Assembly (NCBI GenBank): GCA_030167865.1
Contig: JALAGF010001947.1
Span: 1 to 42,533 of the forward strand
Source of the DNA: Craspedostauros australis
Taxonomy: Eukaryota
Length of the DNA stretch: 42,533 nucleotides
Direction of reading: 5' to 3'
Shown here: piece by piece, positions 17,077 through 38,411 of the stretch
Layout of the letters: each line of letters begins with the position of its first letter
How positions within the stretch are numbered: the stretch's first letter is position 1
Made by a program: the position numbers and the translations under genes
The notes under the pieces: model-generated
What the model saw: the letters and a program-made list of their open reading frames with translations, nothing else
Database searches by the model: none
Told to the model about the DNA's origin: nothing

Positions 17077-17430
17077 TCAATACTGGTACGACGTCATCAA
17101 GGCGACGTTGCGGACGTACGATGGGTCGTTGGCATCCGCATCTGTTGGTCCTGCCAAGCGTCTTCTTCCGAACGCAGTTGATTTTGGGGGCAAATCAGAA
17201 GACGAAGCGGAACCCAAAACGCGGGCGGGTGACGATGATCCTGCCGTCACCGAAGTCTGCGTCGCGGGATCCACCTTGTTGTCATGGCTTTCGTGGTTGT
17301 GGTTGCCGTTGTGCGGATTGGGTCTGTGGGTGTGTCTCCATTCCGCATCGACGGTGGGGTGTTGTATTATCATCAGGATGACCACGAACCAGATGAGGTT
17401 GCTGAAACGCGAGGGTGTGCCGAATGTCAT
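17077..17430 (-). CDS. Small secreted protein / putative pre-pro-peptide A (117 aa)
   Basis: ATG start, hydrophobic signal-like N-terminus (NLIWFVVILMIIQHPTVDA|EW), His/Asn-rich then Ser-rich spacer, GRRRL basic/RXL site. The 3' end uses preferred codons (tac gtc cgc aac gtc gcc). The C-terminus resembles that of ORF 32253-32657. Confidence 0.6.
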   Translation of the reverse strand: MTFGTPSRFSNLIWFVVILMIIQHPTVDAEWRHTHRPNPHNGNHNHESHDNKVDPATQTSVTAGSSSPARVLGSASSSDLPPKSTAFGRRRLAGPTDADANDPSYVRNVALMTSYQY

Positions 17431-18291
17431 CTTGTTGGAAAGATGGTTGGTGTATGAGTATGAGTATGGGCGTGAGTATGAGTATGAGCGTGGTGTAGAG
17501 GAGTGTAGAGTCTTTCTCCAAGTGAAAAGGAATACGAATAATGGGAAGGTCTGCGGCGTTTGTGTTTGTTTATGACCGCGACGATGATGACTGTGCCCGA
17601 GGTCGTTGCAGGTGCTGTCTGTTGTTGTGCTTTCTTACGCGATGTGAGGATGGCGGTTGCGGATTGGTGTGTCTTTGTGCGTCCATGGTCTTTGGGTTTC
17701 GGTCGGATGAAGGAACGTGCAACCTTCGCCTCCTGCGTTTCTTCGCTTCCGATTGATGGGATGCGTTGTGCTATACCTCTCAGCGTGGATGTGAGAGCAC
17801 GTGATGGGTGGCCGAGTCTTTCGGAAGTCGGTCGACATCGCCGCTGCCTCCTGTTGATGTCGACGGAAAGGCATCAACTGTTCCATCACGTTTTGCTGAT
17901 GTTCTGTGACAGTCGCCTTCTGGTTCGCATGGGGCAGTTCGCAAACAATGAGAACCGCCTTTTTCTGGCGCATCCAATCACATACATTCCTTTGCTCTTG
18001 GGGAACCATCGCGTTTGGTGTGAGGTATCTTTCCCATGTGAATCACACTGACAAGAAGCAAGACGCAGCAGCGAAGCGTTCCTGAGCGATTTGGTATGGT
18101 ACGAGTATGAGTGTAGCTGGAATGCAACGTTTGCATTATTTGCAGCGCGAGGTTTGAACTGTTAACTTGGCGTGATCATCGCCATGTCACTGGATGGCCC
18201 AAGAATCTATCAAGCGTAGATGTTGTCATAGAGGAGACAGCGTTGTCTCCCTGGACATCCATAGTGCAGCGTCAGAGAAATCATCTTGCAA

Positions 18292-19943
18292 TCAATCTTC
18301 CGAATCGTCGCTTTGAAAGGACGATGCATATGACAGAGACACCGTGTCGTCGTCGTCGTTTCGTTTGAGAGCGTCTGCGCCATCATGATCATCGTCGTCA
18401 CCATGATTATCGTCGTCCGCCAAAAACACTTGATTGGCCATCTGCGTCATGGCACAGCAGTTGCAAAATAGGACGAGGAACCAATCTTCGAAGCTGCCGC
18501 AGCATCCCGTGGGAATGCCGTACTTGAGCCGGATGAACCGTCGCAATCGAACGACCACCAGGATGCCGTATAGGGAGAGAGGCAAGGAGAGCAGGAGATA
18601 CAGCAGCTGCGGCCAGGACAGTGAGGGAAAATTGACGTCGATCGTTGCTTGCTGCGTGCCGGCGGCTTGCTGGATGCGTCGTCGTTGCCGTCGTTCTTCG
18701 GTTTGGCTGTGACGCATGCTCGGATCTGACGTATCGCTCGCCATTGGTTTTCCTGGTGGTGGCAAATGTTGCTGCTGCAGATCGAAATGCATGGTTGCAG
18801 ATTCCACATTCTGCTGCTGCTGCGGTGTCGCATCGCTATAAAGCTCCCCCCAAATCGACGGTGGTTGATCCCACTGGCTTGATGGCACGGATGGTGCACC
18901 AAAGCCGCGATCAGGTGATAAAAATTGATGACGCGACGTCTGAATGAGATCGAAAACAGAGAAGAGGATGAGAATCTTCATGAGTCGATCGACCATGGCC
19001 TGCGAACGACCCTCCCCGCTGCGATGCACGCGCCTTGGACGATGGTGCTCCTGTTTTGCGGCGATGAGCAACCAGTTCATGTTCATTTTGGTGAGGAGCT
19101 GACCCAGGAGCAACTGCGGACACAGCCATGCGCGGATCGAGGTGGTATCGCACATGCCGAATTGGCACAGTCCGCTCTTCCAACGCCCCGTGTGCGAGAT
19201 TCTGCAGGTGTCGCACACGGGCGTAGTGATGTACTGATCTGCTTCGACACCACCTGGCGGAACGACCACAGGGAAGGATGCGCGGCCGTCCGTGGCCCAG
19301 AATGTGTAGCCTGCAAAATGCGAGCGACGCGAGGTGGATGTACGAACAGAGAGGCAGACAGAGACACACACAGACAGAGAGAGAGAGAGAGAAGCAGAAA
19401 AATGATGCAAGCATGGTGTTAGCGAAGATGTATCAACAACCAAGCATGATCTTCATTGCAGGCATCCTCATGAGTTGGAAAGACACGCGAAGCCTTTCAA
19501 CAAGGACGACACCCAATCGCTTCCTCCTTGTCTGCATCGTAATGTTCCCACGGACGCTCACCTTCAGCCAAAGTAAAGGGAACCTTGATGCGGATCATGT
19601 CGACGTGCTCGCAGGATGCTTGGGGATACTTGCAGGGACACGTGACGTGCTGCGGCTGGTGGCACTGCTCACAGTCCTGTGCGGCGCAGGATGAGCCGGC
19701 ATGCTGATGTTGGTTGTGACATCGATGCCGACGCTGATTCAAAGTGCCACTGTCGCCGCTGTGGCAGCTCTCGCTGTGGTCGCTGTGGTAACTGTCATCT
19801 GATGAAATCAACGGCAATGGTGCTGCTGCAGATGCTGCAGATAGTGACGCAGATGGTGATGCTGATGGTGATTGTAATGGCATGGGTGCGTGACGCCATG
19901 GCGACTTGTCGCTTTCCAGAAGAGGCAGCAGCGTGGATGGCAT
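18292..19943 (-). CDS. PLAC8-family (Cys-rich) membrane protein, 2 exons, ~466 aa
   Basis: Exon 1 is 19943-19562. GT-AG intron 19561-19311, phase 1, joining ..TLAEG|YTFW. Exon 2 is 19310-18292. Split PLAC8 motifs: GRWKSGLCQFG..AWLCPQLLLGQLLTKM and RLRRFIRLKYGIPTGCCGSFEDWFLVLFCNCCAMTQMANQV. Two hydrophobic segments lie between them. Confidence 0.85.
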
Positions 19944-20219
19944 CGTCGGATGATGCAACGCGATGGCAATGTTGCACGGTGCGTGTATTAGTGTATTAGT
20001 GTATTATGGCATGTGCGGATGGTGTTATCATCAACAACCCTCCTTGGTTGATCGGCACCTTCGCTCTGGAACAAGTGTCTGCCTTTGTGCCCTTTCGCTT
20101 CCCTCCAAGATCGTGTGACATCTACCACAAATTCCTCAAGGAACCAAATTTTCCAGTTTGGCACGGCTCACGTTCGTGCGACACAATTCTTGCCAAAAGT
20201 GACGAGATACGTTTATGAA

Positions 20220-20258
20220 ACATGTCGCACTTTCGCTTTCAATTAATGTGCGACATGT
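20220..20258. promoter_or_regulatory. 11-bp perfect inverted repeat (ACATGTCGCAC-N17-GTGCGACATGT) in the divergent PLAC8/SNARE intergenic region
   Basis: Arms at 20220-20230 and 20248-20258 are exact reverse complements. A regulatory role is inference only. Confidence 0.35.
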
Positions 20259-20778
20259 CACGTCTCCAAGTTTATTGGCACGCGCGCCGGCACTTTCCGG
20301 GATGATGTCATCAAAATCGGCAATTTCCAAGTGGTCGAATGAGTCGTAGTACGATGAATTTGGGCAGATTGCGTCTGCCTCCGACACCGTTTTGGCGGGA
20401 TCGAACAAAAGCGATGACCGCAGCGGCGACCATGGCGAAGAAGGCCATCGATTTCGCACGACGAACAAGGAATCAAGAAGGGGAGCGTCCTCTTTCTCTG
20501 TCTTTCTCTCTCTGGTGTCCGACTCAATCCAGCCAAACACATTCCGACCTTGTGCACCTGCTTGTGCACTCTGATCAATCCTCAACGATCTGCTCTACTA
20601 TACTCCACTTGCATCTGCTTTGTCCTTCCACGGGGGCGTTCATTCAAACCACAAAGCACATCGAAGCAAGAGCAATCAAGCAATCAAACAATCAAGCAGA
20701 GAAAGGCATCGAAGTCCAATCGGAGGAGGAAGACTGTGTCTGGTCATCTTGGTTCTCCAACTGCATCCAGAGCGCCAC

Positions 20779-20838
20779 TCATACTATTCATACTCAGACT
20801 ATTCATACTCAGACTACTCATACTCAGACTATTCAGAC
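20779..20838. repeat. 15-bp tandem repeat (TCATACTCAGACTAT-like) x3 plus partial copies, upstream of the SNARE ATG
   Basis: tcatactattcatactcagactattcatactcagactactcatactcagactattcagac seen directly. Confidence 0.8.
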
Positions 20839-20922
20839 CTGATCTCAGCGCATCATTTTGCTAAAAGCAACTTCATCTATTATAAGTCTACAACAAGACA
20901 CAACAACGCACAACAACGCACA

Positions 20923-21492
20923 ATGTCGTTCAATCGGGCAGGAAGCCGCTCCAAGGAGTACGATCGCGTCAGCTTGGAGGAATTCAGCGATGATGACAGC
21001 AACGATGGCAACAATGACTTTGTTCAGAGCAGCATCAAGAATCAGCAGGTGCGTTCACAATATCTCGTGCGGTATGCAATGCTCTCCCACGTCTGAATTT
21101 GTGCGGTCCATGGCGATGCTTCATTCATCCATATCTCATCGCTGTCATCGGCATCTGATTCTTCTCGCATCGAACTACATCCAACCCACGCGCAACACCA
21201 CCAACACCAACAGGAGCTCATGAAACAACAAGATCAGGGCCTGGACTTCCTGGCCACGAGCGTCAATCGGTTGCACGAGATGAGCATGGGGATATCGGAC
21301 GAGCTCAACGAACAGAACAACATGCTGGATGCCATGGAGACGGATCTAGATGAAGCTGGAGAGGAATTGGACATGGTCACAAGGCGCACCAAGGAATTCA
21401 TCCAGCAGGCAGGGGGGACCAAGAATTGCGTCATCATCGTCTCCCTCAGTCTCATCGCCTTGGTTCTCTTCTTTTTGGTCATCTACGTGTGA
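20923..21492 (+). CDS. Qc-SNARE (syntaxin-6/8/SYP5-6-like SNARE motif + C-terminal TM), 2 exons, 134 aa
   Basis: Exon 1 is 20923-21048 (MSFNR...IKNQQ). GT-AG intron 21049-21213, phase 0. Exon 2 is 21214-21492: ELMKQQDQGLDFLATSVNRLHEMSMGISDELNEQNNMLD (0-layer Gln), ending in a tail-anchor CVIIVSLSLIALVLFFLVIYV. Confidence 0.92.
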
Positions 21493-21511
21493 CGTGACGT
21501 GACGTGACGTG
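21489..21511. repeat. (GTGAC)4+ pentamer microsatellite overlapping the SNARE stop codon
   Basis: gtgacgtgacgtgacgtgacgtg seen directly. Confidence 0.8.
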
Positions 21512-22187
21512 TGGAACGGCATATCATACAATGCGTGTGTGTACCACATATGCACTCGTACATGCCAACTGGGAAACGGATGCGCAGGTGGATGAGTGTG
21601 GGCATGGAATTGCAGGACGACAATTAGTGAAAGAGCGATGCTGAACATGCGAAATGTATCAACATCGCACGAATATGAACATGGGCAAGAATGGTCAGCA
21701 ATCGCGATGGGGGAAATCTCGATGATCACGTATGGAGCAGGTTTGCGATTCGACATCGGAACTGCATCATTGTGATTCGACCATAGAAATGCACGTGCGA
21801 AGCTTGCGATGCCGTGACACTACCTCCAGCGTCCCAATACAACCGCGAACCAAATGAAAACACAACAGTATTTGCACAGCTAAAGGCAACAGGAGCAAGC
21901 AAGTGGTGGCCTTCGGAGCGTTGCGCGACGATCGCAGACATGAACCTTCCACCTCGACTCGTACTCTTTTCGGATCTCGATCTCCTCCGTACACATGCGC
22001 GTACGCGTACACATGAGCACGCGTAATGAACACCAACACAGCTTCCATCCCCACTCCATCCATCCATCTGTGTGTTTGCCTGTCTCCCTGATGACACCAT
22101 GTCAATGCCAATACTATCACAACGTAACCACAGCGACAGCATCGTATTTGGTTATTCATTGTGAACGCTCTACCTACATACTATACT

Positions 22188-25100
22188 CTAGCACCCGTCA
22201 CCTTCGCTATCCTGAGTCATTTGAGTTGGCAGTGTGATGGTCGCGGTCGGGCCCGTGTAGTAGTCCTGCTCCTGACGTTGATCGTCGCGAAGGATGGGGA
22301 ATAGGTCTCCAATATGACGCATGGTCGGTCGTCCGTGCGGGCAGTTCCAGGGATGCTCCACATCGGCAAGCCGTTGCACCACTTGGTCCATCTCCTTTTG
22401 GGACAGCGCTGTCCCGATCATGATGCTCGTGCGGCATGCGCGGCTGGCAAACATGGCGATCGCCTTCGGGAGCCTGGCGAGGATCTGATTCGATGAACTC
22501 TGCTTCTTCGCACCGGCACCGGCTCCAGCCACATCCATGTCGTTGTCGTCGTTGCTGCTTTCAGCCGCTGGCGCTTGTGTTTGCGTCATTTGGGAGGCTG
22601 AGGCGTAGCGGCGCACGGCGTTGTTGCCGTACCTGCCTGTGCCGTCCGTTCCGATCCCTCCGTCACCCGCCTCGTATGCCGAACCTTCCGACAGGATCGC
22701 ACACAACGTAGACACGTCGTCCTTGCCGAATTGCACGGACTTGCGACCGTCTTGCGCACCGGAATGCGGCAGCGCTGTGAGCTTCAACCGATGGCGGATG
22801 GGTGCGCTGGGATCGTGCTCGAAGCGAAATCCGTTCTTCGTGAAGATGTCCATGTGATCCAGGATGCAGGACTCCTCGGACGAACTCAGTTCCAGAGGCA
22901 TCGGGCGGATGAGCTTCTGCTCGTGAATCACGGTGTCCCTGATCAGGTTCTCGAAATTGTACTTCTCATCGCAGGCATGCTGATCCAAGATCCAAAGGTT
23001 GTTGTTTTGGCATTTGGCCAAGATGAAACCGAGATTGAACTGCCCCAGGATTTGCATCTTTCCGTCTCGGAAGTCTTCCTTGGATAATCGGACGATGTTG
23101 TCATCGTCGTCATTGGTGGTATCACCGCTACCGTCATTGCTTGTGCCATTGCCGTTCATCACTGATGGCTTACGTGGAGTCTCACCACCACCGTTTCTCT
23201 GCAAATCCAATACCCCGTCTGCAGAGCCAGCAGCATCTGAGTTGGTTTTGGCGGTTCCATGCTTCGATCGGCGCAACGCTAACTTCCGTTCCCTCATTTC
23301 TGTTCGATATTCTCTTGCTTCTCGAGCTACAGCTTCCGTACTCTCGTACGCACCCCAAAATACCGGAGCTTCCTCCTTGCCATCATCATCACCACCATCA
23401 TCATCTGCTTCATCTTGTTCATTGGCATCATCACCACCGTCGATCCTGTCGTCGCCCTCAGTCGCTGCCAAGTCTTCGTCAAGGCGAGCCACCACTGTCG
23501 AAGTCGATGTATCCATCACATCTGTATCTGGATCAGATTGGCGTGCTCTTCGTTGTGGTGAAGGGACGCCGCGGCTGGCGCTACCTTGTCTACTGCGTGC
23601 ACGCGTGGGGGAGGCTGATCGTGATGATGTCTTCGAGTTGTTTGGTTGGAAACCAAATTTCTCCAACAGCGTAGACGAAGACCTGGGACTGGTGCTGTTA
23701 TTTCTGCTTCGTCGCAATGGTGATGCTGACGTTGACGTTGGGCTCCTCGTGGGTGATGCCGATGATCTGGCAAACTGAGAGAAATCTCGTTTGCGCAACA
23801 CGGAGGTTGGCGATCGTGGTGGACTCGCGCTGCGTCGATTCGCAGCAGCTCTCTCGTTCTCATGCCCGCTTTGGCTTGCCTTGTCGTTCGATGCGTCCGC
23901 GCTGTTGCTCGGTGATAGCTCCTCGCATGTTGGGCTTGATTGCTTGTTGAAATTGGTCTGCGCCGTCATCCATTCTCGGATGTCTCGGTCGGAAGCCTTC
24001 CTGTGCCTGCTGTATCGCTGTTGGCGTCGTGGACTCGACCGGCTGTTGGGACTGCCTCTGCTACCGATCGATGCAGGACTGGAAGACTTCCGTAGGTATG
24101 GATTCGAGACCTCCGCGCGTAACGATGGGCTGGTTGGAGTTTGGACTTGCGAGGATGCTTGTGCCACAGTCTGATGAGTGTCATCAGATGATCTGGACGA
24201 TGTGACGCCAGCAGCCGGACTGCCTATGTCTACAGTTGCATCACGTTTAGCTCCAGCCGGGTCCTTCGCTACGTTGCTTGCATTGGGCAGATCGGCGTCA
24301 GCTGCATCGTTCTCACCGATGGATTCGGTTTCTCTTGAAATTCTGCGACCTGGCACGAATTGTTGCTGATCATCAAGGTGCTGCATGTGACTACGAGTAG
24401 GTTGAAGCATTTGAGGGCGTCCTTCCATGGCTTCGTTCGGAATGGAATCGTTTCTTTGGTTGGGATGAGCAGAAGAATCACTCCCAACAATCTCCCGATC
24501 TCTGGATACACGCCTGCGCTTCATCACTCGTTTTGTTTCGTCATTCAGCTCCAAGTCCTGGCTCTGTGGGGTCCCCGAAGAGACTGGATCACGTTGTGAC
24601 TCGTTATTGCTGCTGGAATTCTCCGTCCGGACAGACTGCGACAGTGGTGTTTCCGCCTCTGCTCGAGGAGCCGTGGTTCCGTCTTGTTCGCTGTCTTCGT
24701 TTTGCAATTCAGAAATTGCTGCCTTCGATGTCTTGGAATCATCAGTATCCATCCGGTCGGAACCATCCGCACGGCCATCATTTGTGTTGCCTGTGCCGTC
24801 ATCATGTTCATCGTCGGTATCTGAATCTTCATCACCATCCACAACAATCGATTCCACCACTTCATCACTGTGTTGCTGGTCGGCGTTCGCATCCGCACCG
24901 CCGGCGAGATCCGTGTATACATCCTTGGCGCGTTCCTCCAATTCGTGCTGCATCTTGGCTTTGCTGAGATCATGCACGAAGGCATTGCGTCGTTTGTGCA
25001 GCTTGCGCTGCGAGTCCGGCGACAGCACTTCCAACGCACGCGCATCGGTGGCATCACCGCGATCCAACACTTTGCTTTGAAGCTGATTGAGTCTCGATGC

Positions 25101-27102
25101 GGCGTTGACCGTAAATTGCTGTTGCAGCTGCTGTTGTAACTGCTGTTGTTGCTGCTGCTGTTGTTGCAATTGTATTTGTTGATAGAGCTGACGCTGCGGC
25201 GAGATATTGGAAAGCTGTGAAAACGGAGGCGTTCGCAGACCACGCTGAGGGCTCAGCAGCTGCTGCATGTGTTGCTTTATTCTTTGCTGTTGCTGTTGCA
25301 GCTGCTGCCTGTGCTGTTCCAGCTGCGACAGCTGAAAGCTGCCATGGACCTGACTGGACCAGTACGTGGTGATCGCTGCTTGCACGAGGTGCACGACATC
25401 CTGTTCGTGCATCATGAGGACTTCACGCTTGTCGGGTGCCACGTTGATATCGTATGCGTTGTTGGGTATGCGGAGATGGAGGATGCACGATGGCTTGCGC
25501 TTGCCTCCGAATGATTGCCACGCCTTTCGCATCACAGCAGTGATCTTGGGAAGATCGACTGGGCGGCCGTTGATACAGAAATAGTTTACGGATGCTTGCG
25601 GCGTCTTCGTTGAGGCTGGTGATTTTGAGATGAATCCAGAAAGTGACCAACTGCCTGCGACAGGTTGTGGTGATATTGCGTGCTTGATGGTTGGTGGTGA
25701 CGACTGACCGGGTGATCCCGAAGCAGCCGCTGCCGTTGATGCAGAAACAGTGATGTGAGATTGCTGTCTCTGTTGTTCGAGTTGCTGCTGATGCTGTGCA
25801 GCAACAGCTGATAGATCGACTGTCAGCGGTGCCATCGATGACAGAAAGTTGTGACCCAGGACGGACGAAATGTTCTCCTTGAGATGCTTTGCGGTATGAG
25901 ATGTTGTGACGGCTGTTTCCTCCCGTTGCCCCGAGCCATGCGACACCATGTCAATGAGGTTTATTCTCTTGCCAACATGAAATATGGCATCTATCGTGGA
26001 TGCGAGAGCATGAGAACAGAATAGAGTAGTTTGTGGCAAGTGCGTTGTGTGCGAATGTGTTTGACCAAGGAATCAATCCGGACATTAATACGATATGGGA
26101 AAAGCGTGAAAGCGTTAGACGCATGGATGAGAGAGGTTCTTTCGGTTGCATCCATCCATGCCGGTGCACGCTCGTGACCACCATCGCAAACATCAATGCC
26201 ACCATCATGGAGTCCAACGCACACAATGCCCCTCGTCTTGCACACCGCCAACGTACATGATTGCATCAACCGAAATAGCTTGGAGCGTTCCGATCGTATT
26301 CTGCGTGCCATGTCTGCTCGGCGGGCGGGCAGGGTGTGGAATGGCTTGACGATGGCCACCGTGGTGCCCACCTTGCGCGGAATCTGCAGGAATCCGTCGT
26401 TCGGTTCGACGAGGGAACCGTCGCGGGCATACTCCAAGCGCACGGCAGACGTTTCGGCCGCAGTGCGCGTGGCAACAATGAGCTTGTCGCTGAGCGCCGC
26501 CATGGAGAAGAGGGCCTCGCCGCGGAATCCCAAACTGCAGTCGTTGCTTGTGTTGTTGTAGATGTCATCCAAGGACCTTATCTTGCTGGTGGCGTAACGT
26601 GTTGCCAGGAGCTTTCGGTTGTGTGCTGGAACGCCCGAACCGTCATCCGTAACTTCGATGATCTCCAGACCGTGTCCAAATAATCGCACTGTAGATAAAT
26701 AGAGAAATGAGAGATAGATAGAAGAGATGGGCATGATGGAAGAGTTCCACGTGTACGAGTACATATGCATCGACGCAGTGGGGGGATAGGTTGCGCAGAA
26801 ACGAACATGTAGGTAGTGAATAGAGTTTGTGAGTCAACGATGGTCCTTGCGCTTGTACGGTACGATCCTTTCTCAAATGAACGACGATGCCGCAACGTAC
26901 CGTTGATACAAGTCGATCCAGCATCCAGCGCGTTGTCCACCAGCTCCTTGACGATACCCGAAAGGTCCGTGATGGCCTGTTCGGCGACAATTCTGCGCAC
27001 GGTGGATTGCGCCAGCGGACGAATGAGACTGGGCGTTTGCGCGGCACTGTCATGAAGGCTCTCCGCTGCATCTCCGCTGCCATTGTGCATAGTGCTGGTC
27101 AT
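22188..27102 (-). CDS. PMS2: DNA mismatch repair endonuclease PMS2 (MutL-alpha subunit; PMS1 in yeast/plant naming), 3 exons, ~1478 aa
   Basis: Exons 27102-26901, 26688-26257 and 25990-22188, with GT-AG phase-1 introns that restore the frame (CIN|VRLFG, MQS|YAIF). GHKL ATPase motifs KELVDNALDAG, DDGSG, ATSK, LGFRGEALFS, GTTV. S5-like domain INGRPVDLP..YDINVAPDKREV. Endonuclease motifs GQFNLGFI, DQHACDEKYNFE, SRACR, WNCPHGRPTMRH. Confidence 0.95.
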
Positions 27103-27365
27103 GCTGGCGTTGGTGCTGTGCGTCTCTCTTCAGCGGTTGATGTGTGTGCGAGGATGGATGAATGAATCATACACGCACGCTTGTTTGTTGGTTGGACTGC
27201 TCTGCTTGACGGTACCCGCAGCTTTCGTAACTCCTGATGGTCCGATGCGTTGGTCGCGATTTCTGAGCACTCGATCGGTTGTCCTCGTATGTGCGCTGCT
27301 GGTGGGAACTTTGCGTTGCAATCAACTCGTGTGATCGATTGCCTGCATCCATTCAAACGATGCGT

Positions 27366-27399
27366 GTCACAAATCGATGCGCGTCACAAATCGATGCGC
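27366..27399. repeat. Perfect 17-bp tandem duplication (GTCACAAATCGATGCGC)x2 upstream of PMS2
   Basis: Copies at 27366-27382 and 27383-27399. Confidence 0.8.
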
Positions 27400-29914
27400 C
27401 GTGGGAAGGTGGCTGGCTTCAACTCAACTCAATTCAAGTTGATGCTTGCGTTTGACTTTTGTGTGGGCTTGAAATTTGTCGACGAAAATCGGCGGCGCGA
27501 AGAATCCTGCCTTGTTCTTGTCGTTGCGTGACAGCTTCCTTTTGGTTCGTTGGTTGGTTAGTTGGCTGGCTGTTGAAGTCCTTCTCTCCAGAGAGTCGTA
27601 TGGCACAAGTACGCACAAGGACAGTATGGTATGGTATGTTACATCCAAGTGGGACGCGATGCGTACACCAACGTCGTCGGACAAGATGATCAAGAGCCCT
27701 CCGACACAATGGCCCTGGCTGTCGTGGAATGAATGCGCCAGAAGCGGAAGGGCCGCAGCGTGTTGCTCCCTCCTGTGCGCTGAGTTTGTCGCGATCCAGT
27801 CCAGTTGGGAAGGGAAGTCTCGTTGTCCAAGTTACCTACGACTACTGGCGCTGTTGCGAATCGTTGAGGCGGTTCCACTGTTCTCTGCCTCTTCTGTTCC
27901 TTCTCGTCAGCTTGGGAGACACTCCTTCTCGTCGACCGCCTTCTGGTTGCTTCCGAGCTTTGTTCCTGTTGGAGTTGCTGCCGTTCCTTGTTCTTCTCGT
28001 GCTGTGCTGCTTGTGCTGTGCTGCTTGTGTGAGCGTGTTGCAGCCAAAACACTCCACGAATGGCGCGGGCCCCGTACGACCTGAAGCACAACGCAACGCA
28101 ATCGATGCTATTCGCAGTATGAACCCCTTGCGACACAAACAACCCGATCCAAGAAGAAGAAGGATGCGATTGGAGCCCACCGTTCTCGCGCACTGTTACA
28201 CTGCAATACTTGCAACCAACCGAGTCCACACGATCGGCAAGAAGGGACCGAAAGTCGAAGAAATTGGGTGAGAATGGCCCAAACCGTTTTGCGCTTTGGC
28301 CCAACGAGGCAGCGTTTGAATGTGGATGTGATTGTGGGCGTGGATGGAAATGGATGGACGGAGATGCGAGCCAGGATGGAGATGCTTGCATGCTTGGATG
28401 GGCCAACAAGCGAAGCAAGAAGAAGCACGAGCGGCAACAAGGCAAAACGAGAGAGAGGAACACAACAGCTCGTACAATCTCTTCGCCACGCGGCGCCGCG
28501 CATCGTCATCATCGTCGTTATTCTTGTTCCACGCGCTGCGACTGCTGCAACAGTTTTGCGGACAATTTGCTTCCGCACGTTTCCACGCTGTTTGGTCCAC
28601 TGATTCCTGCGTAGTCGTGCAACAACAAAGACATCTGCATCCCGCGATGTCATGCCGCTAAACTTTCCGCATTCGCCGCTCGTGTGATGTCTAAATCGGT
28701 GATATTTGTGTGATGGATTGGAATTAGTTGGCCTCGTGCTCAGAGATAAAAAGTGTTGTCCACGCGTTCTCAATTAGGGCGACATCAGGTTTTGCCTTTC
28801 TCGGTTTCTCTCTTTGTGGTTCGAAGCACCAACAACAGGCTCGCTGGCAAAGGTGAAAGATTGGGCGACTCCTCTGCGCAATGGATGAACGTCGCGGCTG
28901 CCAAGCGTCCAAGAATCATCTCGCTTGCGCTGTATCTGATCTGCGAGCTGCGTAATACTCTATGAATGAACACATCCATGAGATGGGCTTGTGTAGTATG
29001 GTGGGACCAGACGCCCGACACGTTCGTTTCAAAACTTGAAAAACCCTTTGTAACTCAGCCGCAGATGATTTACTCCATCATGCCCGTCGTCTTCAAGGAG
29101 ATCAAGAGCGAAGATCCAACAGCGCTCATCCTTGTCGGAATGTTTCAGGTGGCTGGACAATCACAGTCTCTCTGCTCTATTACAGAAAGTATTGCTACAC
29201 CACGGACAAGTCCAGCGCTTTACATCTCCCAGAATGATCGTGGTGTCGAATGTTACCTCCACAGCGTGTCTTGCAGAAGATGACGTATGCCGATGGACGT
29301 AGAATATGTTCTCTGTTCGGCTCCAAATCTTTTGGAGAGATGATCGTCGTCATGCATGCATCATTCATCTTTGGCTGTTGTCGCGGACGTGAGCAAGGAC
29401 AAGACGCTCTCATTCCCTTCTCGGCATTTTTGCATGTATCATCTGTTACCGGTCTGTTCCTGTGTTCCAATCATACTCGTTGGCGCTATTCCTCGTTGCC
29501 TATTCGTGTGCTGTGGTAAGTGCTTTCGAACGCCACAATCTCACCTTTGTATGCAGATCTTCGACACGAACAGGACAGAGTGCACACAACACACTACGGA
29601 GAGGATCACAGGTGCGTTGCTTGAGCACGTGAGAGTGGGAGAACCCAACATGGGCATCACCAATCGCATTCTGTTGCCCGTTCCAGACAGGGAAAGCAAT
29701 GCGGCATCGCCAGAAATCGTGTTCACTCACTTGCTAATCTTTGGGATGGATGAGTCCACATCGTCGCAATAATCATACGGAGAGAGAGAGTGAGTGTGTG
29801 TGTGTGGGTAGAGTAGAGTAGATGCAGCCAACTCTCATTTGTGATGCTCGCATTGAAGCAACTGCGCTGGTCGACCTCTCGCCGTTGCTACCGATGCTGT
29901 CACCAACGTTGCCA

Positions 29915-31525
29915 TCAATGTTTGGAAGCGTCCTGCCGCATCGCCTCCACTTCTTCGTTCGGGTACAATTGGATTTGCATTCGATCCTTCAGTTTGGGAT
30001 TGGTGTACTTGGAGAATCGTTTCGCTTCACGCTTGACGAAGGCTTGCGTCGCTGCATCCGAGTTCTCCACGAGATACATGCGGACGCGTTGCATGTCGCC
30101 CAGATACGCCGCCCAGAGCAGGAAGGTGGACTTGGCACAACCCACCAGCTCCTTCTGCGCTGATTTCAAAACGCAAAAGTCCTGCATGTCGGTTTGGTCT
30201 GTCACGAGGCGCACCTTGACACCGCGCTGTTGCAATGCCGCGACGTAGGCTTGCGTGACATCGTTGTGCATGCGGCTCGTCATGATGACCTTGTCGCCAG
30301 GCTGCAGCTGACCGAACAATGCATGCGCCGTCTTGTTGGGTGACAGCTCCTCGAATCCGCGGAATTTGGCAGCATTGGGGATCTCCGTTTTGAAGTTGCG
30401 GAAATGCTGGCGTTGCGGAAGAAGCGATGGCGCGGGACGTGGTGTGATGAGATGGATTGATACAAGACGACGCAGCGTCGAGGGATATGCGAAGTGCGCA
30501 CGGAGTCGAGCGCATTGCTGCGTCCATGACTCTGACCTCACAATTTGAAATACAATTCATGGATACCTGCCTGTATGCAAAACAAAGCATCACCATCACG
30601 TGGTGCTCACAATTTCATGTCCACTTACAAAAACGGATTCGTCCGGTTCCGGCAGAATGCCACAGCATTGTTCCGACGTGCTGTCAAAGGCGAACAATCG
30701 CCGATAATCGTCAAGGAACCGATCGACGAAGAAGCGAGGCGCAAATTTGCGCACCACAATCACGGGCAGCATGATCGTTTCGTCACGATCGTCCACCGTC
30801 ATCTGCATCGGACCGGAATGCCGCGATGCAAGATCCGACAGTTGCCGCAATCCCTGTTCCATCTCGGAAGGTTTCTCGCCATGCACCAACCGTTCAATAG
30901 CACCGACTGTGTCCACTTGCCGTTGCCGAATGGCTTCGAAATCCCAACCATTGGCCTGATTGAAGCGAAATACGCGCAGGTGAGGAAAGCACGTCTTGAT
31001 GCGTCTCTCGGTGGATGCCCACTGGGTCGGCAAATTGTCGCCCTTCATCTTCAGCACGAGCTGCGTCGGCAGACGGAATTTGCGTTGCAGTTGCAAGTGC
31101 AATCCGTATCCAAAGGCGATACGCTGCAGATTATTTCCAACTTCGCCCGTCAGTTCCACGACGATGGTTGCTTTGGGTGGTTGAGATGCAAGTGCAGGGT
31201 TCTTGTCGCTGTCCATTGTATCGCCATGGATGTTGGTATGAAGCGCATCTTGTGCTCGTGCAGCTTGCTCGCTCTGCGGTGCATCTGCGTTGCCATCTTG
31301 CGCTTGTTGAAATGACGACAGAGACTTCAACAAGTGCGATGTCTGTGCAGATTGCTGTTGCTCGTGGTTGATTGTCGACGCCTCTCCAGAAGGCCACAGG
31401 ACCTCATGATGCTGGGTCGAGAGAAAGCTGACCTGGAAGATGACCACTGCAGCCACAGCGCAGATCAGCGCATCCGTCGTCTTTCGAAAGCATGTCCGTT
31501 TGACACCGCAGCCAGCCGTTGCCAT
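29915..31525 (-). CDS. GT11-like (alpha-1,2-fucosyltransferase-like) type II membrane glycosyltransferase, 2 exons, ~462 aa
   Basis: Exon 1 is 31525-30629. GTAAG..CAG intron 30628-30407, phase 0. Exon 2 is 30406-29915. N-terminal anchor ALICAVAAVVIFQVSFL. Motifs GEVGNNL (cf. GRLGNQMF), SVF|HFRNF (cf. VHVRRGD) and QDFCVLKSAQKELVGCAKSTFLLWAAYL (cf. D..LM..C.H.I..NSTFSWWAAYL). Confidence 0.75.
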
Positions 31526-32252
31526 GTCATCTCATGCCGCAGCACTTCACTTGATGCGGGTGGTGGTGCAGAGTGGGATGGAGAACAATCGTAAGCACTG
31601 CTGTTGAGTGTGAGTGTGAGTGTGGGCACGAGGATGGGGAATGCAGTCGTTGTTCTGTGGAGTCAAGAATCGTGCTCGTCGTTCTGGAATTCGGAACTTG
31701 GCGCCAACGAATAATGACCGAAAATGTCCGTGTTTCGTAGACTTCCGCAACAAGCATAGAGGTGGACAGGAATGACAGCAAGGCACGAGGATGAAGAGGA
31801 CACGCCCACATTCATGGCAGTGTGCGCACAGCACAGCTCTTGCAAATCAACTGCATTGCGATGGTATCTACTCTGTGCCTCTTCGTTGAATAGCGTATGT
31901 ACTGGTGTGATTTATGGTGGTGTGTTATTGTGCATGTTGAAAATGTTGTAGTTGGAGTGTGGCCGATGCATTCATTCAGTGTCTGTTTGGTTGGTTGGGA
32001 CGCTCTGGGAGAGAGGGAAGCATGGAGTAACATGGAATGGAGCGCAAAAGAGTGGAGGAGCCAGCAACTTCCATTCTCTGGCGTGATGCGTCGTGCTGTG
32101 TTGTGCTGCAAAGAGCGGCGTTCCGTTTCAAGATGCGACAGCGCCAGGCCAATTGCCCCATCCTTGCTGTCAGCTCTCATTGGTGCTATTCCACATTCGT
32201 TGCTGCTGCGCTGCCCCCGCGAAGGATCCCACGCCTGCTTGATCTCATGAGC

Positions 32253-32657
32253 TCACAGATACTGGTAGGGAAGCATCGGCGGTGGGATATGTCGATACGG
32301 CTTCGGATCGCGTGGAAGTGGTTGCGGTGGGAGTGGAGGAGATACAGGAGGCACGACGCCTTGCGCACCATCCTCCATGCGTTGCGTCCTGCTCACGTGT
32401 TGCACGGCGAAGACGGGATCCTGTTCATCTGCGCTTGTGTTGGTGGGAGGAAGCTCGGAATGCACTGGCCGAATGTTCTCTTGCATCCGCTTGGTGTCTG
32501 TGTCCTCCAGCGGCGACGCGGAGGAAGGGATCACGTTGGAAACGCCGAACCTCCAATGTCTGCGTCCGTCCACCGGCTGGAACTTGAGAAGCAGATACAT
32601 CGTCATGGCGAAAGCCGCGCATCGGAAATGATTGACTGTCATGGTGCTGTTCTTCAC
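32253..32657 (-). CDS. Small secreted Pro-rich protein / putative pre-pro-peptide B (134 aa)
   Basis: ATG start preceded by a CAA-rich leader. Signal-like segment CAAFAMTMYLLLKFQPVDG, then WRFGVSNVIP. The C-terminus is Pro-rich and ends MLPYQYL. Motifs are shared with ORFs 37959-38411 and 17077-17430. Confidence 0.6.
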   Translation of the reverse strand: MKNSTMTVNHFRCAAFAMTMYLLLKFQPVDGRRHWRFGVSNVIPSSASPLEDTDTKRMQENIRPVHSELPPTNTSADEQDPVFAVQHVSRTQRMEDGAQGVVPPVSPPLPPQPLPRDPKPYRHIPPPMLPYQYL

Positions 32658-33455
32658 AAGTGTATGCTCGCAGAATGTGCAGTTGTGTTGGGTAGTGCTC
32701 TTGTTGTTGTTGCTGTTGTTGTTGTTGCTTTTCAGTTTGTGTCGGGTTGTCTGGCAATCTTGCTTTTGTTTTGGGTCTCTCTGTTCTGACTTCGCTTGCT
32801 TGTCTCTTGTGGGTTGGGCGTGTTTGCGAGTATCGTGCTTGCTGTCGTTGTGACATCATTTCTGTGCAGAACAATTCACAACAGGAACAGGAGAGGGTGT
32901 GTGTTGCATCACGCAAAGAAGTTCTACCACATCCAAACCTCCACACACATGACAGGTCGCCTCATCCTTTCTCTGTGCCTCCCTGTTTCTATCTGCACTT
33001 CGCTTCACCCATCACTGATGTCGTGTGTCAACGGAAGGCATCCCTTCTGTTGGTGCCCTCTCTGTGTTCCGTACCTCGTGCTTTGTTCTGTGTGGCTCAT
33101 GAATTCGGTGGACCTCTCCATTCTGTCCCATCAATCGTCATCGTGTGAACGGCGACTTTCACAGAACCGTGTCATCACTGCTCATGTTCGTATTCTCTTT
33201 TTTGTCCCCGCTGTTCTCGTTGCACGGTTTGGGTTCTTGTTTCCTCACGCTTCCGCGAGAGTTCTGCTTCTGACATCAATTTCCGATTTGTCTGCTGTGC
33301 TTTCTACAACTGACTTCGGTTGTTGGTTTTAGACCTCGTCGACCCAGTCATCCAGTCACGCCATGTACCCACCGACTTCAATCACGAATGTCGCGCTCCG
33401 GAATCAGCAAACGCCAACCAAAACAAGATGTCGATCAAAGCCACACCCAACACAT

Positions 33456-33507
33456 CAATCCGATCCAATCCGATCCAATCCGATCCAATCCGATCCAATC
33501 CGATCCA
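33456..33507. repeat. 10-bp tandem repeat (CAATCCGATC) x~5 upstream of the plastid-protein gene
   Basis: caatccgatccaatccgatccaatccgatccaatccgatccaatccgatcca seen directly. Confidence 0.85.
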
Positions 33508-33659
33508 TCAAACGCAGAGTCAAGAAGTGGTTCAGTTCTGTCAAAGCACCTACGATCCATTATACGAACAGAAAGTCCATCCCAAGTTGCACCACCATCC
33601 TTGCAACAAGTGTAGCACATTGAAGATTGCAAGCATACAAGATCATCACTACGACTGTC

Positions 33660-35153
33660 ATGTTCAGCAATAGAAGAAGTTGTTGCACGGCGGCCATTTT
33701 GGCTGTAGCATTGATTGCAACAGCGCAGGCATTCCAATCCTTTCAACCATCAACACACAGCCATGCAAATGCCAGGCTCCACCCGACAACCGTCCGATCT
33801 CATTCATTCCGTTTGCAAGCACAACTGGGAAGAAGCTCGCAGAATAGCAGCCACCGTCATCACCAATGCAATCGCAAAGGCCAAAGCAGCAGCACGATGC
33901 TGTTTGCAGACTCGGCATCGCTCAATGACGATCTGGAAGAGAAGGAGTATATGTTGTGGGAGGAGATGGCGCTCACCTTCCACCCCAACCTCGATGAGAA
34001 TGACTTTGAGCAGATGAAGGGATTCGTCAACACCGTCACTCTGCTGCGAGTTGGACTCCCGGCGGCCTTCATCGCCAGCTCCGCCTGCCTCTCCTATCCC
34101 ACGGTCTCCCTCGAACTGGCATCGCTCATCAACGACTCCGGCGTCTTCAGCGTTGTGGCGCAGGATGCGTCGCAGTACATCCAGAACATCCTCACAACCT
34201 CTGGTCTCATGTTCTCCATCCTCCTCGGACAGACGTACTACTTCATGTACCAGCAGCAGGAGGCGATTTACTTGGCGCTCTTCGAGGAGGTCGCCACCAC
34301 CAAGTCCTTGATGGAGCAGGTCGGCCTGGTCTCGCGAGGACGCCAGCAGCTCTACACCGCCATCATGTCCAGTATCCAGGAATACGTCAACGAAGATCTC
34401 TCCAAATTCAATGACATCGAACCAGCCGAGATGATCTCGGCACGTCCCATGGACGACCCCCTCGAGGAGGTCCTGTACCTCACCAGCGTGGGCGAACCAT
34501 CGATGGTGTACCAGACCGTCAAGTCCCTGCGACAGGCCCGCGCCTACCGACTGGGCGCCCTGCAACGCAAGCTCCCAGAGATCCAAATGATCCTGCTGTG
34601 GACGCTGGCCACCATCACGCTGTTCACCTTCCCGCTCCTGGGCGCCGGTTCGCAGACCATCGGAGGCATAGGCATTCTGAACGTGCAGGCGTGGTACCTG
34701 GGATTCCTCGTGTTCGGCATCAGCATCACGATGGGCATCGTCAACGAACTGCGCACGCCATCCAGGGTGGGTGCCTACAATGCCCGGACGGTGTTGCATC
34801 TTCTGGTGGAAGGCCTCAAGGATGAAGTGGAGATGAGGATGAACGGCTCCATCAGTCCACCAACTCTCGAGATGGAACCGACGGTCGACAATGACGGCTT
34901 CATCCTATCGCCCAGCGCGGCCGCGGCCATGCCGGATGGTATCGTCGACGGAAGAACCACGATCCGAAACTCAGCTTTGCTCGAGGCCGTTCCTGAAGCG
35001 GAGAATGTCCTGACTGCCTTTGAGAATGCCAAGATCGTGGACAATGTCGATGGGACCTTTGCGGAGACCGCGGAAAAGCAAATTGCGGCAACCAAGCCAC
35101 CCAAACGACGGGGCTTTCGGGAGCGTCTCTTTGGCAAGAACAAGCGCGATTGA
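33660..35153 (+). CDS. Nucleus-encoded plastid-targeted multi-pass membrane protein (possibly DUF4239/bestrophin-like), 497 aa
   Basis: ATG at 33660. Signal peptide ends AQA|FQSF (diatom ASAFAP-type motif) and is followed by a Ser/Arg/His-rich, acid-free transit peptide. About four hydrophobic segments are arranged in two pairs around a helical soluble region (GLMFSILLGQTYYFMYQQQEAIYLALFEEV..). Strong codon bias. The family call is tentative. Confidence 0.8.
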   Translation: MFSNRRSCCTAAILAVALIATAQAFQSFQPSTHSHANARLHPTTVRSHSFRLQAQLGRSSQNSSHRHHQCNRKGQSSSTMLFADSASLNDDLEEKEYMLWEEMALTFHPNLDENDFEQMKGFVNTVTLLRVGLPAAFIASSACLSYPTVSLELASLINDSGVFSVVAQDASQYIQNILTTSGLMFSILLGQTYYFMYQQQEAIYLALFEEVATTKSLMEQVGLVSRGRQQLYTAIMSSIQEYVNEDLSKFNDIEPAEMISARPMDDPLEEVLYLTSVGEPSMVYQTVKSLRQARAYRLGALQRKLPEIQMILLWTLATITLFTFPLLGAGSQTIGGIGILNVQAWYLGFLVFGISITMGIVNELRTPSRVGAYNARTVLHLLVEGLKDEVEMRMNGSISPPTLEMEPTVDNDGFILSPSAAAAMPDGIVDGRTTIRNSALLEAVPEAENVLTAFENAKIVDNVDGTFAETAEKQIAATKPPKRRGFRERLFGKNKRD

Positions 35154-36299
35154 TGCGGTTGGGGGCGACAATGATGTTGGAGCTGATTGGCAGGTCGTAG
35201 GTGGGCAGTGTGCAGACGGGACGGATTCGTAAGTGTCGCATTCAGCAATACAGGTGGATGGGAAGATGGAGGTACCGAAAGACTTTGCGCATGAATATGG
35301 TACTTGACGATTGATAAGTGCAAGACTTGTATGCGTAGAGTACGGAGTATGCGAAGATTCAACTTGACAATGCAAGGTACCAACAATTGGTCTAGTTTCT
35401 AGTGTTTGCAGGTCTGCATTGATTGTATAGTAAACAGTTCGGCAATGGTAGGTAGGTATGTAGGTTGCACTCTTCGGGGAGAGTGGTGCAGTTGGTGTAT
35501 CCGTATCTCCAGGTTGCATGCCACGCCGTGGGTGATCGTTCAGTTGTGCGAGCCCAAGCAATTGCTCTGCACTATTCGAAGAAGAAGACTACACAAGTAA
35601 ACCGCCAGAAATAGTCAAGGCGGCAACTCGAACAGCGCGTGCGCACTTTTTGAACTTGAGACTGCCAGTTAACGCAACGACCACAACAGCAAAACTGGAA
35701 TTTAACGCAACCAAGTTTACCGATTACCAGCGGTACTTGCAAAATTAAACCAGAGCAAACCCACCAAACCCAGCCGTTCTGTCCCTCTCAGCAGCCACGT
35801 AAGAGCTGTACCAGAAATGCGCGTAGGCGTCGAATTCAAAAATTATGAACAGCCGAACACCACCACCAAACAGTTTTGCAGAGTGGCAAAGAGAGGTCGC
35901 GCACGTAAATCGCGTTGATTTGCGCGAGGTGTGTGGGGGATAGCGATCGCAAACCCACGTAAATTGCCAGCAACAACACGATAATGCACACCAAAACCCA
36001 TCCGCGACGATGAAGTGATGGACTGACAACAAAGACCACAAACAACTCAGTCACCAGCGACAACAGAAGCAGCAAAAAACAGTTTTGGCAGCCACTGGTC
36101 GTCCCAAAGGGCAAAGTCAACCACATCGAGTCGGTCAATCCAAACAGCCCACATCATCCAGTTGCTCACAATTTGAAAGCCATCGAGGCAAAGCATCCTC
36201 CGGGTATCATCCATTGCCCTCACGAACACACACACACACACATCATCCATTGCATCATCCAAAACAAGGCAAGTTAGAAGCAAAGAGAAGCAAGAAGGC

Positions 36300-37706
36300 A
36301 TGATGACAGCTAGCAAAAAGATCTCGGCTCCAAGCAGCCCAAGCAAGCCCAACGGCAAGGGCAAGAGCAAGAGCAACGGCACAACCAATGGCAAGGACAA
36401 TGGCAATGACAAGAAGACCAGTTCCGTCGTCGTCCCCGTGCCTCCGGCCAACAACCATGCTGCTCTCATCACAATGCCGGCCGCCACCATCCCAGAGCAG
36501 TCGGCACCCGAACCATACGCCTACCCAATGGTGGCAACTGTGAAGGTGGCGCCCTTCAAGACCAAATCCCTCAACAGCGTCCACGTCACCAAGTGCACCG
36601 TCCCCCGCAGAACCGCCGACACCAACCAACCGCTGACTGTCGGCGAATGGACTAGATCCGTTGTGGAATCCAACCCCGATTGGCTCATCAAGCTCCTGCG
36701 CCGATGCATCGGCGACAAGAACGTTGCCATCCTCACGTACGGCGCGGGATACGAAACCTTGGTCCTGATGGATGAGGCGGTCGGCACCATCCCGGTCAAG
36801 TTCGCCGATATCACCCGCGTTCCCGTGGGTCTGTCGACCAGCTCCTGCACATCCGGCGATGACGAAGTCAAGCTGGCAGCGCGAGGTGTTTTGACGCCAA
36901 CGGATCTCATTTGGGACCATCTGCGATTCCAGAGTCAGGACACGTCGAACACCAAGCCAGACTCCTGCCTGTGTCTGCACAACAAGCTGACTCTGTTTGG
37001 TCCGACGGAAGCCACTCACAAGAGAGTGCTGCAGATCAACACGAACGCACCCAGCGACCCCAACGCATTCAAGGAGGCCATCTCCAACGCCCAGTTCGAA
37101 GCCGAAGTGCATGCGACATGGAGCGGCGCGCGCTTCGGAACCACCGATGTCGTGGTGACGGAAGAGGAAGGTGTGTCCGACATCGTCTTCAACTCGCTGG
37201 AGCTCATCCTCCTCGAGAAGGCCCTCCTCGATCAGCTCCAAGAAGAAGACATGGTCATCGACGTCAACGCCGAGTACGGCGAGAGTGAGATCGAGGCTGG
37301 CCTTGCCGTCATCCACCGCGCCAACGACCAGTTCCGCGAGTTCACCAAGCGCACCCGCAAAAAGACCACGAAGTCGGAGGACGACGCAACGGCTCCACCC
37401 AAGAGCCCAACGAGGAAGCCTGCCTCACCAAAAACGGCCGCGCCCAAGGGTCCAGCGAAGAAGGCGCCCACCAAGGCCGCAGCGGCCAAGGCAGCGAAAC
37501 TCATGAAGGAAGAGGAGGACGCAACAGAACAAATCCAGTCACCACAAGATGAAAGTCCGGAAGCCCCACCCACCATCCGATCCTCCAAGTCCAGGAGCCG
37601 GCGTTCCTCTTCCAAATCCAAGAAGGGCAAGCGCGATCGCTCTGTCGAGGGCACTTCCTCGTCGCGTTCCAAGCGCAGCAGAAAGTCCACCAGGGAGAAG
37701 AAGTAA
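36300..37706 (+). CDS. Hypothetical protein, 468 aa, probably nuclear (Lys/Ala/Pro-rich and Arg/Ser-rich C-terminal tail)
   Basis: Long intronless ORF with strong coding-type codon bias. Globular-looking core of ~270 aa with no recognised family. Basic tail PPKSPTRKPASPKTAAPKGPAKKAPTKAAAAKAAK..SKSRSRRSSSKSKKGKR. Confidence 0.85.
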   Translation: MMTASKKISAPSSPSKPNGKGKSKSNGTTNGKDNGNDKKTSSVVVPVPPANNHAALITMPAATIPEQSAPEPYAYPMVATVKVAPFKTKSLNSVHVTKCTVPRRTADTNQPLTVGEWTRSVVESNPDWLIKLLRRCIGDKNVAILTYGAGYETLVLMDEAVGTIPVKFADITRVPVGLSTSSCTSGDDEVKLAARGVLTPTDLIWDHLRFQSQDTSNTKPDSCLCLHNKLTLFGPTEATHKRVLQINTNAPSDPNAFKEAISNAQFEAEVHATWSGARFGTTDVVVTEEEGVSDIVFNSLELILLEKALLDQLQEEDMVIDVNAEYGESEIEAGLAVIHRANDQFREFTKRTRKKTTKSEDDATAPPKSPTRKPASPKTAAPKGPAKKAPTKAAAAKAAKLMKEEEDATEQIQSPQDESPEAPPTIRSSKSRSRRSSSKSKKGKRDRSVEGTSSSRSKRSRKSTREKK

Positions 37707-37958
37707 GCAAACGCGGTCTAAAGTAATGTCATGGGAGTACGTCCGTAATTATTCTATGATTTTGAAATGTTGAGGTTTGCACCGGATTTGTTGTGTTCGT
37801 GTGTGTTTGTATGTGTATGCGAAATCATCATTATATTGGCCATGCACGCAAGTGTATGCATTGCTCCACTATGACTGGCATAGGATTGTTGCAACGGATT
37901 CTGTGAGAGACGGAAGCGCAGCATGTACTGCGCTCAATGCTGCACTCCCTCAACCACC

Positions 37959-38411
37959 TCACTCCTTCTCCGAATCGCCGAACTGCTCCTTCCAGATCTT
38001 GCCCCAGCGTTCCTTCGTCTTCTGAAAGTGCGACGTCTGCACATCCTTCTCTTCCTGCAGCTTGTCCTTCACCTTGTCCGCCTTGCGCATGACCTCCTTC
38101 TGCTTCTTTTCCAGCTTGACACGCTCCCGTTTCAGCTGCTTCTTGGCGTTGGCGGCCTCCTTCTCCAGCACCTCGGCCTGTTCCTCGACGCGTTTCTTTT
38201 GCATCCCGAACCATGCCTTGGTCTCATCCGACACGACGGCCTCCGCCTCGGCCTTGAGCTTCTCCACGGATTTCTTCTTGCTCTGGTCGCGCTCGACGCC
38301 GTTGTCGGGCAGGACGGTGGATTGACCGAATCGCCAGACCGTGGCGTCCGTGATGCAGCAGCTCATTGCGAGCACCAGCAGCAGGAACATCGTCATTGGG
38401 TTCTTCATCAT
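37959..38411 (-). CDS. Small secreted coiled-coil protein C (150 aa)
   Basis: ATG at 38411/38408 after an ACA/ACG-rich leader. Signal peptide MMKNPMTMFLLLVLAMSCCITDA, then WRFGQSTVLP, then a Lys/Glu-rich helical region. Strong codon bias (aag, gag, gcc). Confidence 0.8.
   Translation of the reverse strand: MMKNPMTMFLLLVLAMSCCITDATVWRFGQSTVLPDNGVERDQSKKKSVEKLKAEAEAVVSDETKAWFGMQKKRVEEQAEVLEKEAANAKKQLKRERVKLEKKQKEVMRKADKVKDKLQEEKDVQTSHFQKTKERWGKIWKEQFGDSEKE

Follow-up and report, generated by a model that had tools for sequence, protein, structure and literature searches.

Three short minus-strand open reading frames of a Craspedostauros australis contig: candidate small secretory genes, two of which may be old paralogues

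We analysed 42,533 nucleotides of Craspedostauros australis DNA (GenBank assembly GCA_030167865.1, contig JALAGF010001947.1, positions 1 to 42,533 of the forward strand; the whole stretch is called the window below) with respect to three short open reading frames (ORFs) on its minus strand: ORF A at 17077-17430 (117 amino acids), ORF B at 32253-32642 (129 amino acids from its first ATG) and ORF C at 37959-38411 (150 amino acids). A sequence-only reading of the window had linked the three, by motifs at their N- and C-termini, into a modular family of secreted peptide-signal precursors; the ORFs and the motifs quoted for them are indeed present among the ORFs and six-frame patterns of the window. 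Our comparisons lead to a different view, to which we give a probability of about 0.55: A, B and C are separate small genes, none with a detectable relative, whose products probably go into the secretory pathway; B and C may be old paralogues, and A is unrelated to either. The three-member family itself did not survive, with the C-terminal likeness of A and B at chance level, no orthologues of B or C in the libraries searched and no Pfam match.

That the ORFs are plausible genes, as had been supposed, is suggested by their occurrence in other sequence sets and by their codon usage. The exact 117-residue sequence of A is held in a public protein collection (sources JGI/IMG and mmetsp), as is the exact 129-residue form of B (sources mmetsp and eukprot), the mmetsp label being that of what we take to be a transcriptome resource. 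B and C each lie whole within a contig of sequencing run X1: B within a contig of 866 nucleotides placed at 31886-32690, with no other letters, gaps or joint, and C within one of 641 nucleotides placed at 37805-38444, with one other letter and no gaps or joint. The contigs run colinear across both ORFs without an inner joint, which fits the description of B and C as intronless. The check for RNA cover gave a positive result for these two, in short unspliced contigs; A (17077-17430) lies outside the stretch, 19501-39500, with which the contigs were compared.

The label of run X1, 'RNA?', is a guess, and its RNA nature is suggested by two splice-like joints at which 165 and 222 bases are skipped, with ends GT..AG and CT..AC, as expected of spliced RNA. 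All eight aligned contigs are at least 99% alike to 19501-39500, and 37% of the words sampled from 30001-40000 are found in the run. The contigs give no strand, no transcript ends and no expression level, and many bins of 19501-39500 have no contig cover, from which nothing was concluded. The two skipped stretches correspond to introns at 21046-21210 (plus strand, 165 nucleotides) and 30407-30628 (minus strand, 222 nucleotides). A 122-residue ORF at 29915-30283 (minus strand; codon score 0.317, rank 4 of 105) lies within the spliced contig that covers 29069-30846, and is probably an exon of a minus-strand gene.

For codon usage we derived a log-odds table from eight long ORFs of the window (six have a Pfam match) and scored the ORFs with it, stop codons left out. 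The eight training genes score between 0.099 and 0.539, and the 26 wrong-frame ORFs that overlap them score -0.036 or less. C, at 0.577, has the highest score of all ORFs in the window, with -0.290 for the antisense ORF across it, and its GC content at codon positions one, two and three is extreme (0.57/0.30/0.87); there is little doubt that C is a gene. A scores 0.133 (rank 11 of 105 ORFs), within the range of the training genes, its frame is the best of the six at its locus, and it is probably a gene as well. B is ambiguous: its score of -0.008 (rank 17 of 105) is under those of all the training genes and just over that of the best wrong-frame ORF (-0.036). The antisense ORF across B scores -0.359, the GC content of B at the three codon positions (0.65/0.46/0.64) is like that of real genes of the window, and B is the best ORF of its X1 contig, though it may or may not be translated.

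The starts had been given correctly in part. A begins as described; the start listed for B was a GTG at 32657, which adds five residues to the form that begins at the first ATG (a further, inner ATG lies at 32606); and the frame of C is open upstream as far as an ATG at 38930 (323 amino acids), so that the start assigned to C is an inner Met.

The three predicted products differ in kind. A has a hydrophobic N-terminus and then a rest rich in His, Asn, Ser and Pro, with a run of RRR about 26 residues ahead of its C-terminus in the translation. B has a weakly hydrophobic N-terminus, a block that begins with WRFG, and a Pro-rich rest (16% Pro) that appears disordered: its single-sequence AF2 model predicts a helix at residues 3-20 and otherwise no regular structure. 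C has a hydrophobic N-terminus, a WRFG block and then a long helix rich in Lys and Glu (18% Lys, 13% Glu), and its AF2 model, made in the same way, predicts helices at residues 5-28, 44-59 and 62-144, with residues 71-140 at a block-mean pLDDT of at least 95 and most of the WRFG block in a poorly defined stretch between helices. On this model C looks like a folded helical protein and not like a spacer ahead of a terminal peptide.

The most substantial likeness among the three is that between the N-terminal parts of B and C, two ORFs of one strand with 5.3 kb between them, which have a common block of about 30 residues (minus strand, 32526-32606 in B and 38307-38396 in C). It is made up of MTMYLLL (32586-32606) and WRFGVSNVIP (32526-32555) in B, against MTMFLLL (38376-38396) and WRFGQSTVLP (38307-38336) in C. 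The two decapeptides are the sole six-frame matches in the window to the N-terminal pattern of the sequence-only reading, and MTM[FY]LLL too is matched in B and C only; counts of such patterns against windows generated by a first-order Markov model (Markov-1) say little, the patterns having been fitted to these very sequences, and as an unfair test they were replaced by null distributions of ORF pairs. BLASTP aligns B with C at E = 4e-5 as a single comparison, the alignment past about residue 40 being filler. The 45-residue heads of B and C score 52. Full shuffling never attained this value in 200,000 trials, and shuffling within the hydrophobic and the mature part separately did so twice in 200,000. 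Among 83,583 pairs of heads that begin with Met, nine reach 52, six of which are B and C with alternative starts and three of which are low-complexity pairs. The N-terminal module proposed for B and C is thus nominally significant when taken singly, and borderline when set among all ORF pairs of the window. We regard the match as probably real though not proven, because the two short contigs are independently supported and in each the best ORF carries it at the N-terminus, in register. Common ancestry of B and C is likely, and they are perhaps old local paralogues, with predicted bodies unrelated in kind (disordered in B, a long helix in C).

Two further features around B and C were considered and set aside. 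A third WRFG is encoded at 32932-32943 (minus strand), some 290 nucleotides upstream of the ATG of B and outside the X1 contig, where it stands at the start of a 173-residue ORF that begins with GTG (32425-32946) in a frame other than that of B. In six frames WRFG is seen three times, against 0.30 expected, and the third occurrence, given its different frame and its position outside the contig, was treated as chance and not as a family member. CAA-type trinucleotide tracts lie directly upstream of the start codons of both B and C (for example at 32701-32727 and 38426-38434), and were rejected as a link between the two because such tracts are common window-wide, CAACAACAA being found 18 times across the window against 0.72 expected.

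The C-terminal module proposed for A and B, by contrast with the N-terminal block of B and C, is at chance level. The stretches that had been paired are DPSYVRNVALMTSYQY in A (17080-17127, minus strand) and DPKPYRHIPPPMLPYQY in B (32259-32309, minus strand), and the C-terminal pattern drawn from them has matches in A and B only among the six frames of the window. BLASTP gives E = 18 for A against B. Their full-length Smith-Waterman score of 32 is equalled or exceeded by 2,681 of the 10,585 pairs that can be formed from all 146 ORFs of at least 80 amino acids that begin with ATG in the window. For the tails we took the last 22 residues of the 209 ORFs with at least 60 amino acids after a Met, which make 21,736 pairs; lowering the gap-opening cost from 11 to 3 takes the number of pairs that attain the A-B tail score from 274 through 94 and 55 to 52, and the tail of B scores 40 and 39 with the tails of two unrelated ORFs, against 35 with that of A. 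Since the likeness is at this level, a C-terminal 'module' of this kind is to be expected somewhere in any window of 42 kb. Both A and B end in YQY or YQYL, and three ORF ends of this kind are found against 0.03 expected (Markov-1), for a pattern that was chosen post hoc. A and C have no BLASTP alignment at E <= 100, and C has no such tail. With the A-B link at chance, the chain from A through B to C breaks, and the idea of module shuffling falls with it; A is left as a small gene candidate without demonstrable kinship to B or C. The practical outcome is a negative one, in that motif sharing among short ORFs of a single window is to be expected by chance at the level seen between A and B.

All three N-termini had been described as signal-like. 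Judged by a crude rule that combines hydrophobicity (cut-off 1.9) with the residues at -3 and -1, A (3.4) and C (2.8) pass clearly and B (1.96) barely; the description is not distinctive, since 74 of the 576 Met-initiated heads of the window also pass and a signal-like look is therefore not rare among arbitrary ORFs. Signal-peptidase sites in general carry a small residue at -1 and one that is small or aliphatic at -3, and the [VT]-D-[AG] ending in which the three segments agree conforms to this rule, so that it looks like any such site. Among the 209 ORF heads, [VT]D[AG] is found in 8 and WR in 31. The likeness in [VT]-D-[AG] and WR is too weak to tie A to B and C.

Relatives of the three were sought in large protein libraries, within the limits set by word-based selection of candidates and by an incomplete cover of the organism, from which C itself is missing. 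B found only itself among 5.8 billion proteins (targets of 70 to 226 amino acids), C found no match there (82 to 263 amino acids), and a profile of the N-termini of B and C (alignment A1) found B only among proteins of 101 to 2000 amino acids. C has no exact or self match in either library (5.8 billion proteins; 1.84 billion representatives). A phmmer search with C against the 1.84 billion representatives gave one match, at E = 7e-5, to a protein of 930 amino acids (P0005), which we rejected as a homologue: its seven near-identical repeats all match residues 11-43 of C only, a part that sits around the end of the hydrophobic segment. Neither library thus yielded a third member or an orthologue for B, C or the B/C profile, and the wider family that had been envisaged finds no backing there. 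None of A, B and C matches a Pfam family at E <= 0.01, in a scan of Pfam-A that covers peptide-hormone families only as far as Pfam holds them; C has a sub-threshold match to GAPT (17.4 bits, against a cut-off of 21.1). In the ESM Atlas, C has no usable match and the matches of A, at 0.77 or less, are under any useful level. A is the single member of its 90% cluster in the protein collection, a lookup and not a search for distant homologues; scans of metagenomes with A gave 597 pattern matches by protein, none of which was confirmed, and no match to an exact 42-base pattern. A description of a diatom peptide-hormone family was found nowhere in the parts of the literature that were sampled, a limited check and no proof of absence in print. 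The sequence-only reading had named motif hit rates no higher than in controls, together with a lack of conserved orthologues, as what would speak against a family, and this is in part what we see, with motif sharing no better than in controls and no conserved orthologues of B or C in the libraries searched.

C is in this respect apparently a small gene that has gone unannotated despite the highest codon bias of the window and a contig from a run that looks like RNA, and its absence from both libraries is a reminder that small genes are under-annotated.

From the ORFs, their motifs and the statistics of these, the contig cover of B and C, the codon bias and the lack of library relatives for B and C, we propose that the hydrophobic segment of each ORF most likely acts as a signal peptide for entry into the endoplasmic reticulum, with predicted cleavage near ...VDA/ in A, ...VDG/ in B and ...TDA/ in C. 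The products would be small proteins, secreted or at the cell surface, and not sources of short processed peptides: from C one long helix rich in Lys and Glu, from B a disordered Pro-rich chain and from A a chain rich in His, Asn and Ser. The part common to B and C would then lie around the cleavage site, with MTM[FY]LLL closing the signal segment and WRFG.S.V[IL]P as the start of the mature chain. Most likely it is what an old duplication at this locus has left, the regions downstream of it having diverged past recognition. The likeness between the tails of A and B, and that of A to the others in [VT]-D-[AG] and WR, would reflect coincidence and the generic look of a signal-peptidase site.

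Several points weigh against this proposal. The codon score of B is ambiguous, its hydrophobic core passes the crude rule by the barest margin (1.96 against 1.9), and B may be neither translated nor secreted at all; the same rule lets through 74 of 576 arbitrary heads. The kinship of B and C is unsafe after multiple testing: their raw score of 56 is reached by 36 of the 10,585 ORF pairs, B-C included, and E = 4e-5 multiplied by some 10,000 pairs comes to about 0.4. Nor do the B and C loci have DNA similarity beyond that of random tiles, their best local score of 25 being the mean against such tiles and being reached by 78 and 75 of 168 of them. The separation of A from the other two is also imperfect. 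Six-frame translation has four matches to the pattern [VT]D[AG].{0,4}WR where 0.52 are expected (Markov-1), and three of these four lie at the end of the hydrophobic N-termini of A, B and C, for a pattern that was written post hoc; by our rough estimate the match in A is incompletely explained, at p of about 0.1 or more, where 0.1 is the approximate chance, with the combination taken as defined by B and C, that one further ORF among some 200 shows it, before the freedom taken in writing the pattern is counted. More copies may exist elsewhere in the genome of the organism, the motif counts covering the window only; and A was looked up as an exact sequence and by its 90% cluster only, with distant homologues not searched, and lies outside the stretch compared with the RNA contigs.

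These points leave room for other explanations. It is possible, if somewhat unlikely, that all the resemblances are coincidence, that between B and C included, so that C would be a real gene, B a young or non-coding transcript with a fortuitous ORF, and A an unrelated small ORF. The position of B's codon score (-0.008) between all eight training genes and the best wrong-frame ORF (-0.036) would fit such an account, as would the absence of any relative of B from the libraries searched, the 36 of 10,585 ORF pairs (B-C among them) that match the raw score of B and C, the lack of similarity between the two loci at the DNA level and the unrelated bodies predicted for the two products. What speaks for kinship instead is the strength of the statistics of the single comparison (E = 4e-5; at most two of 200,000 shuffles) and the fact that two contigs found independently of the match have it in register, each at the N-terminal end of its best ORF, the other head pairs that score as high being of low complexity only; moreover the GC pattern of B over the three codon positions is like that of real genes, and exactly this ORF was called by an independent pipeline. 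One or more of the ORFs, A above all, could also be an upstream or downstream ORF in the untranslated region of a neighbouring gene, an explanation that overlaps the others and that we consider unlikely. The same-strand neighbours of A are an ORF with a PLAC8 domain (18292-19155) on one side and, on the other, a kinase ORF (14864-15847, with 15881-16579); the single contig on record for the A sequence has 2,815 nucleotides against 354 for the ORF; being so much longer, this contig may also carry the neighbour. Yet the codon score of A is in the range of real genes, with its frame the best of six, and the contigs of B and C, at only 866 and 641 nucleotides, hold no better ORF.

The original proposal, in which A, B and C form one family of modular pre-pro-peptides with an N-terminal module (B, C and weakly A) and a C-terminal one (A and B) and are processed in the manner of CLE, PSK and PSY precursors, we hold to be highly improbable. 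It can point to three N-termini that are hydrophobic, close with a plausible cleavage site for signal peptidase and have WR soon after, to the YQY or YQYL ending of A and B (three against 0.03 expected, for a post hoc pattern) and to the RRR run of A, which as read from the translation could be a processing site. Against these stand a tail likeness of A and B that 52 to 274 of 21,736 tail pairs equal or surpass, and a BLASTP E of 18 for the two; the libraries searched, which hold no orthologue or further member for B, C or the B/C profile; the absence of a Pfam family at E <= 0.01; and the 150 residues of C itself, which with their confidently modelled helix of 83 residues resemble a folded protein more than a spacer ahead of a terminal peptide. 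A peptide-signal family, if true, would be the first proposed for this kind of alga, and the evidence does not bear it out.

CLE, PSK and PSY are plant precursors of post-translationally processed peptide signals, and their defining feature is a conserved terminal motif. A, B and C resemble them in having a variable middle of low complexity behind a hydrophobic N-terminus, and A and B also in their Tyr-rich C-termini. They differ in that the terminal motif of A and B is not common to them beyond chance and C has no such tail; in that no multigene family or orthologues were found for B and C (A having been checked to its 90% cluster only); in that none of the three has a Pfam-A family at E <= 0.01, as far as Pfam includes the plant families; and in that C has a long, confidently modelled helix where a spacer would be expected.

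The nearest description of the three is an operational class, that of the 'orphan' (taxonomically restricted) small secreted proteins. Such proteins are known from fungi, oomycetes and algae. A, B and C agree with it in their size (117 to 150 amino acids) and hydrophobic N-terminus, and in bodies that are of low complexity or simple helices. B and C are short and without a homologue or known domain in the searches made, and for A the same was seen by exact sequence, 90% cluster, Pfam and Atlas only. With regard to expression, B and C lie whole in RNA contigs of a run with spliced joints, and A and B are found in mmetsp-labelled sets. An example from the literature on the class is PMC4759460, which deals with small secreted proteins of fungi. 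The class is not a family, however, and implies no common function, and the secretion of A, B and C is only predicted.

B and C may also be compared with locally duplicated gene pairs. In a general pattern, what such pairs retain is just the region of the signal peptide and the start of the mature chain. B and C are 5.3 kb apart on the same strand and alike only around the presumed cleavage site, which is consistent with this pattern; they differ from it in having no DNA-level trace of duplication, with a common block of only about 30 residues. Likeness beyond the N-terminal block was not found, the DNA being at random level and the long helix of C having no counterpart in the disordered body predicted for B.

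What remains, beside three genes without detectable relatives, is one possible two-gene family, B and C, recognised by its first mature residues. We think it quite unlikely that B and C belong, as its first two known members, to an undescribed family restricted to one lineage, in which the mature N-terminal WRFG.S.V[IL]P is conserved and the tails vary. If this were true, the decapeptide would be the functional part, serving either as a tag for sorting or processing or, once set free from the N-terminus as a short peptide, as a signal; A might be a distant third member in which only ...VDA-x-WR is left; and more members would be expected in the unannotated genome of the organism, given that C is missing from public protein sets.

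The surroundings of the three ORFs can be described briefly. A (GTATGA)n hexanucleotide repeat lies at 17452-17492, directly upstream of the start codon of A. The long ORFs of the window bear GH72, MutL/DNA-mismatch-repair, protein-kinase and PLAC8 domains by Pfam; the window is eukaryotic. The GH72 glucanosyltransferase domain (E = 1.2e-27) is found in a 655-residue ORF at 7199-9166 (plus strand), the GH72 family being mainly fungal. Three other long ORFs of the plus strand (12495-14513, 33660-35153 and 39153-40490) have clearly signal-like N-termini by the crude rule. In one of these three, which is bestrophin-like, the first small-x-small site flagged by the rule lies in ...TAQA, and Phe comes two residues after it; in algae with complex plastids, signals for plastid targeting look like this. 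The region as a whole seems to be rich in proteins of the secretory pathway.

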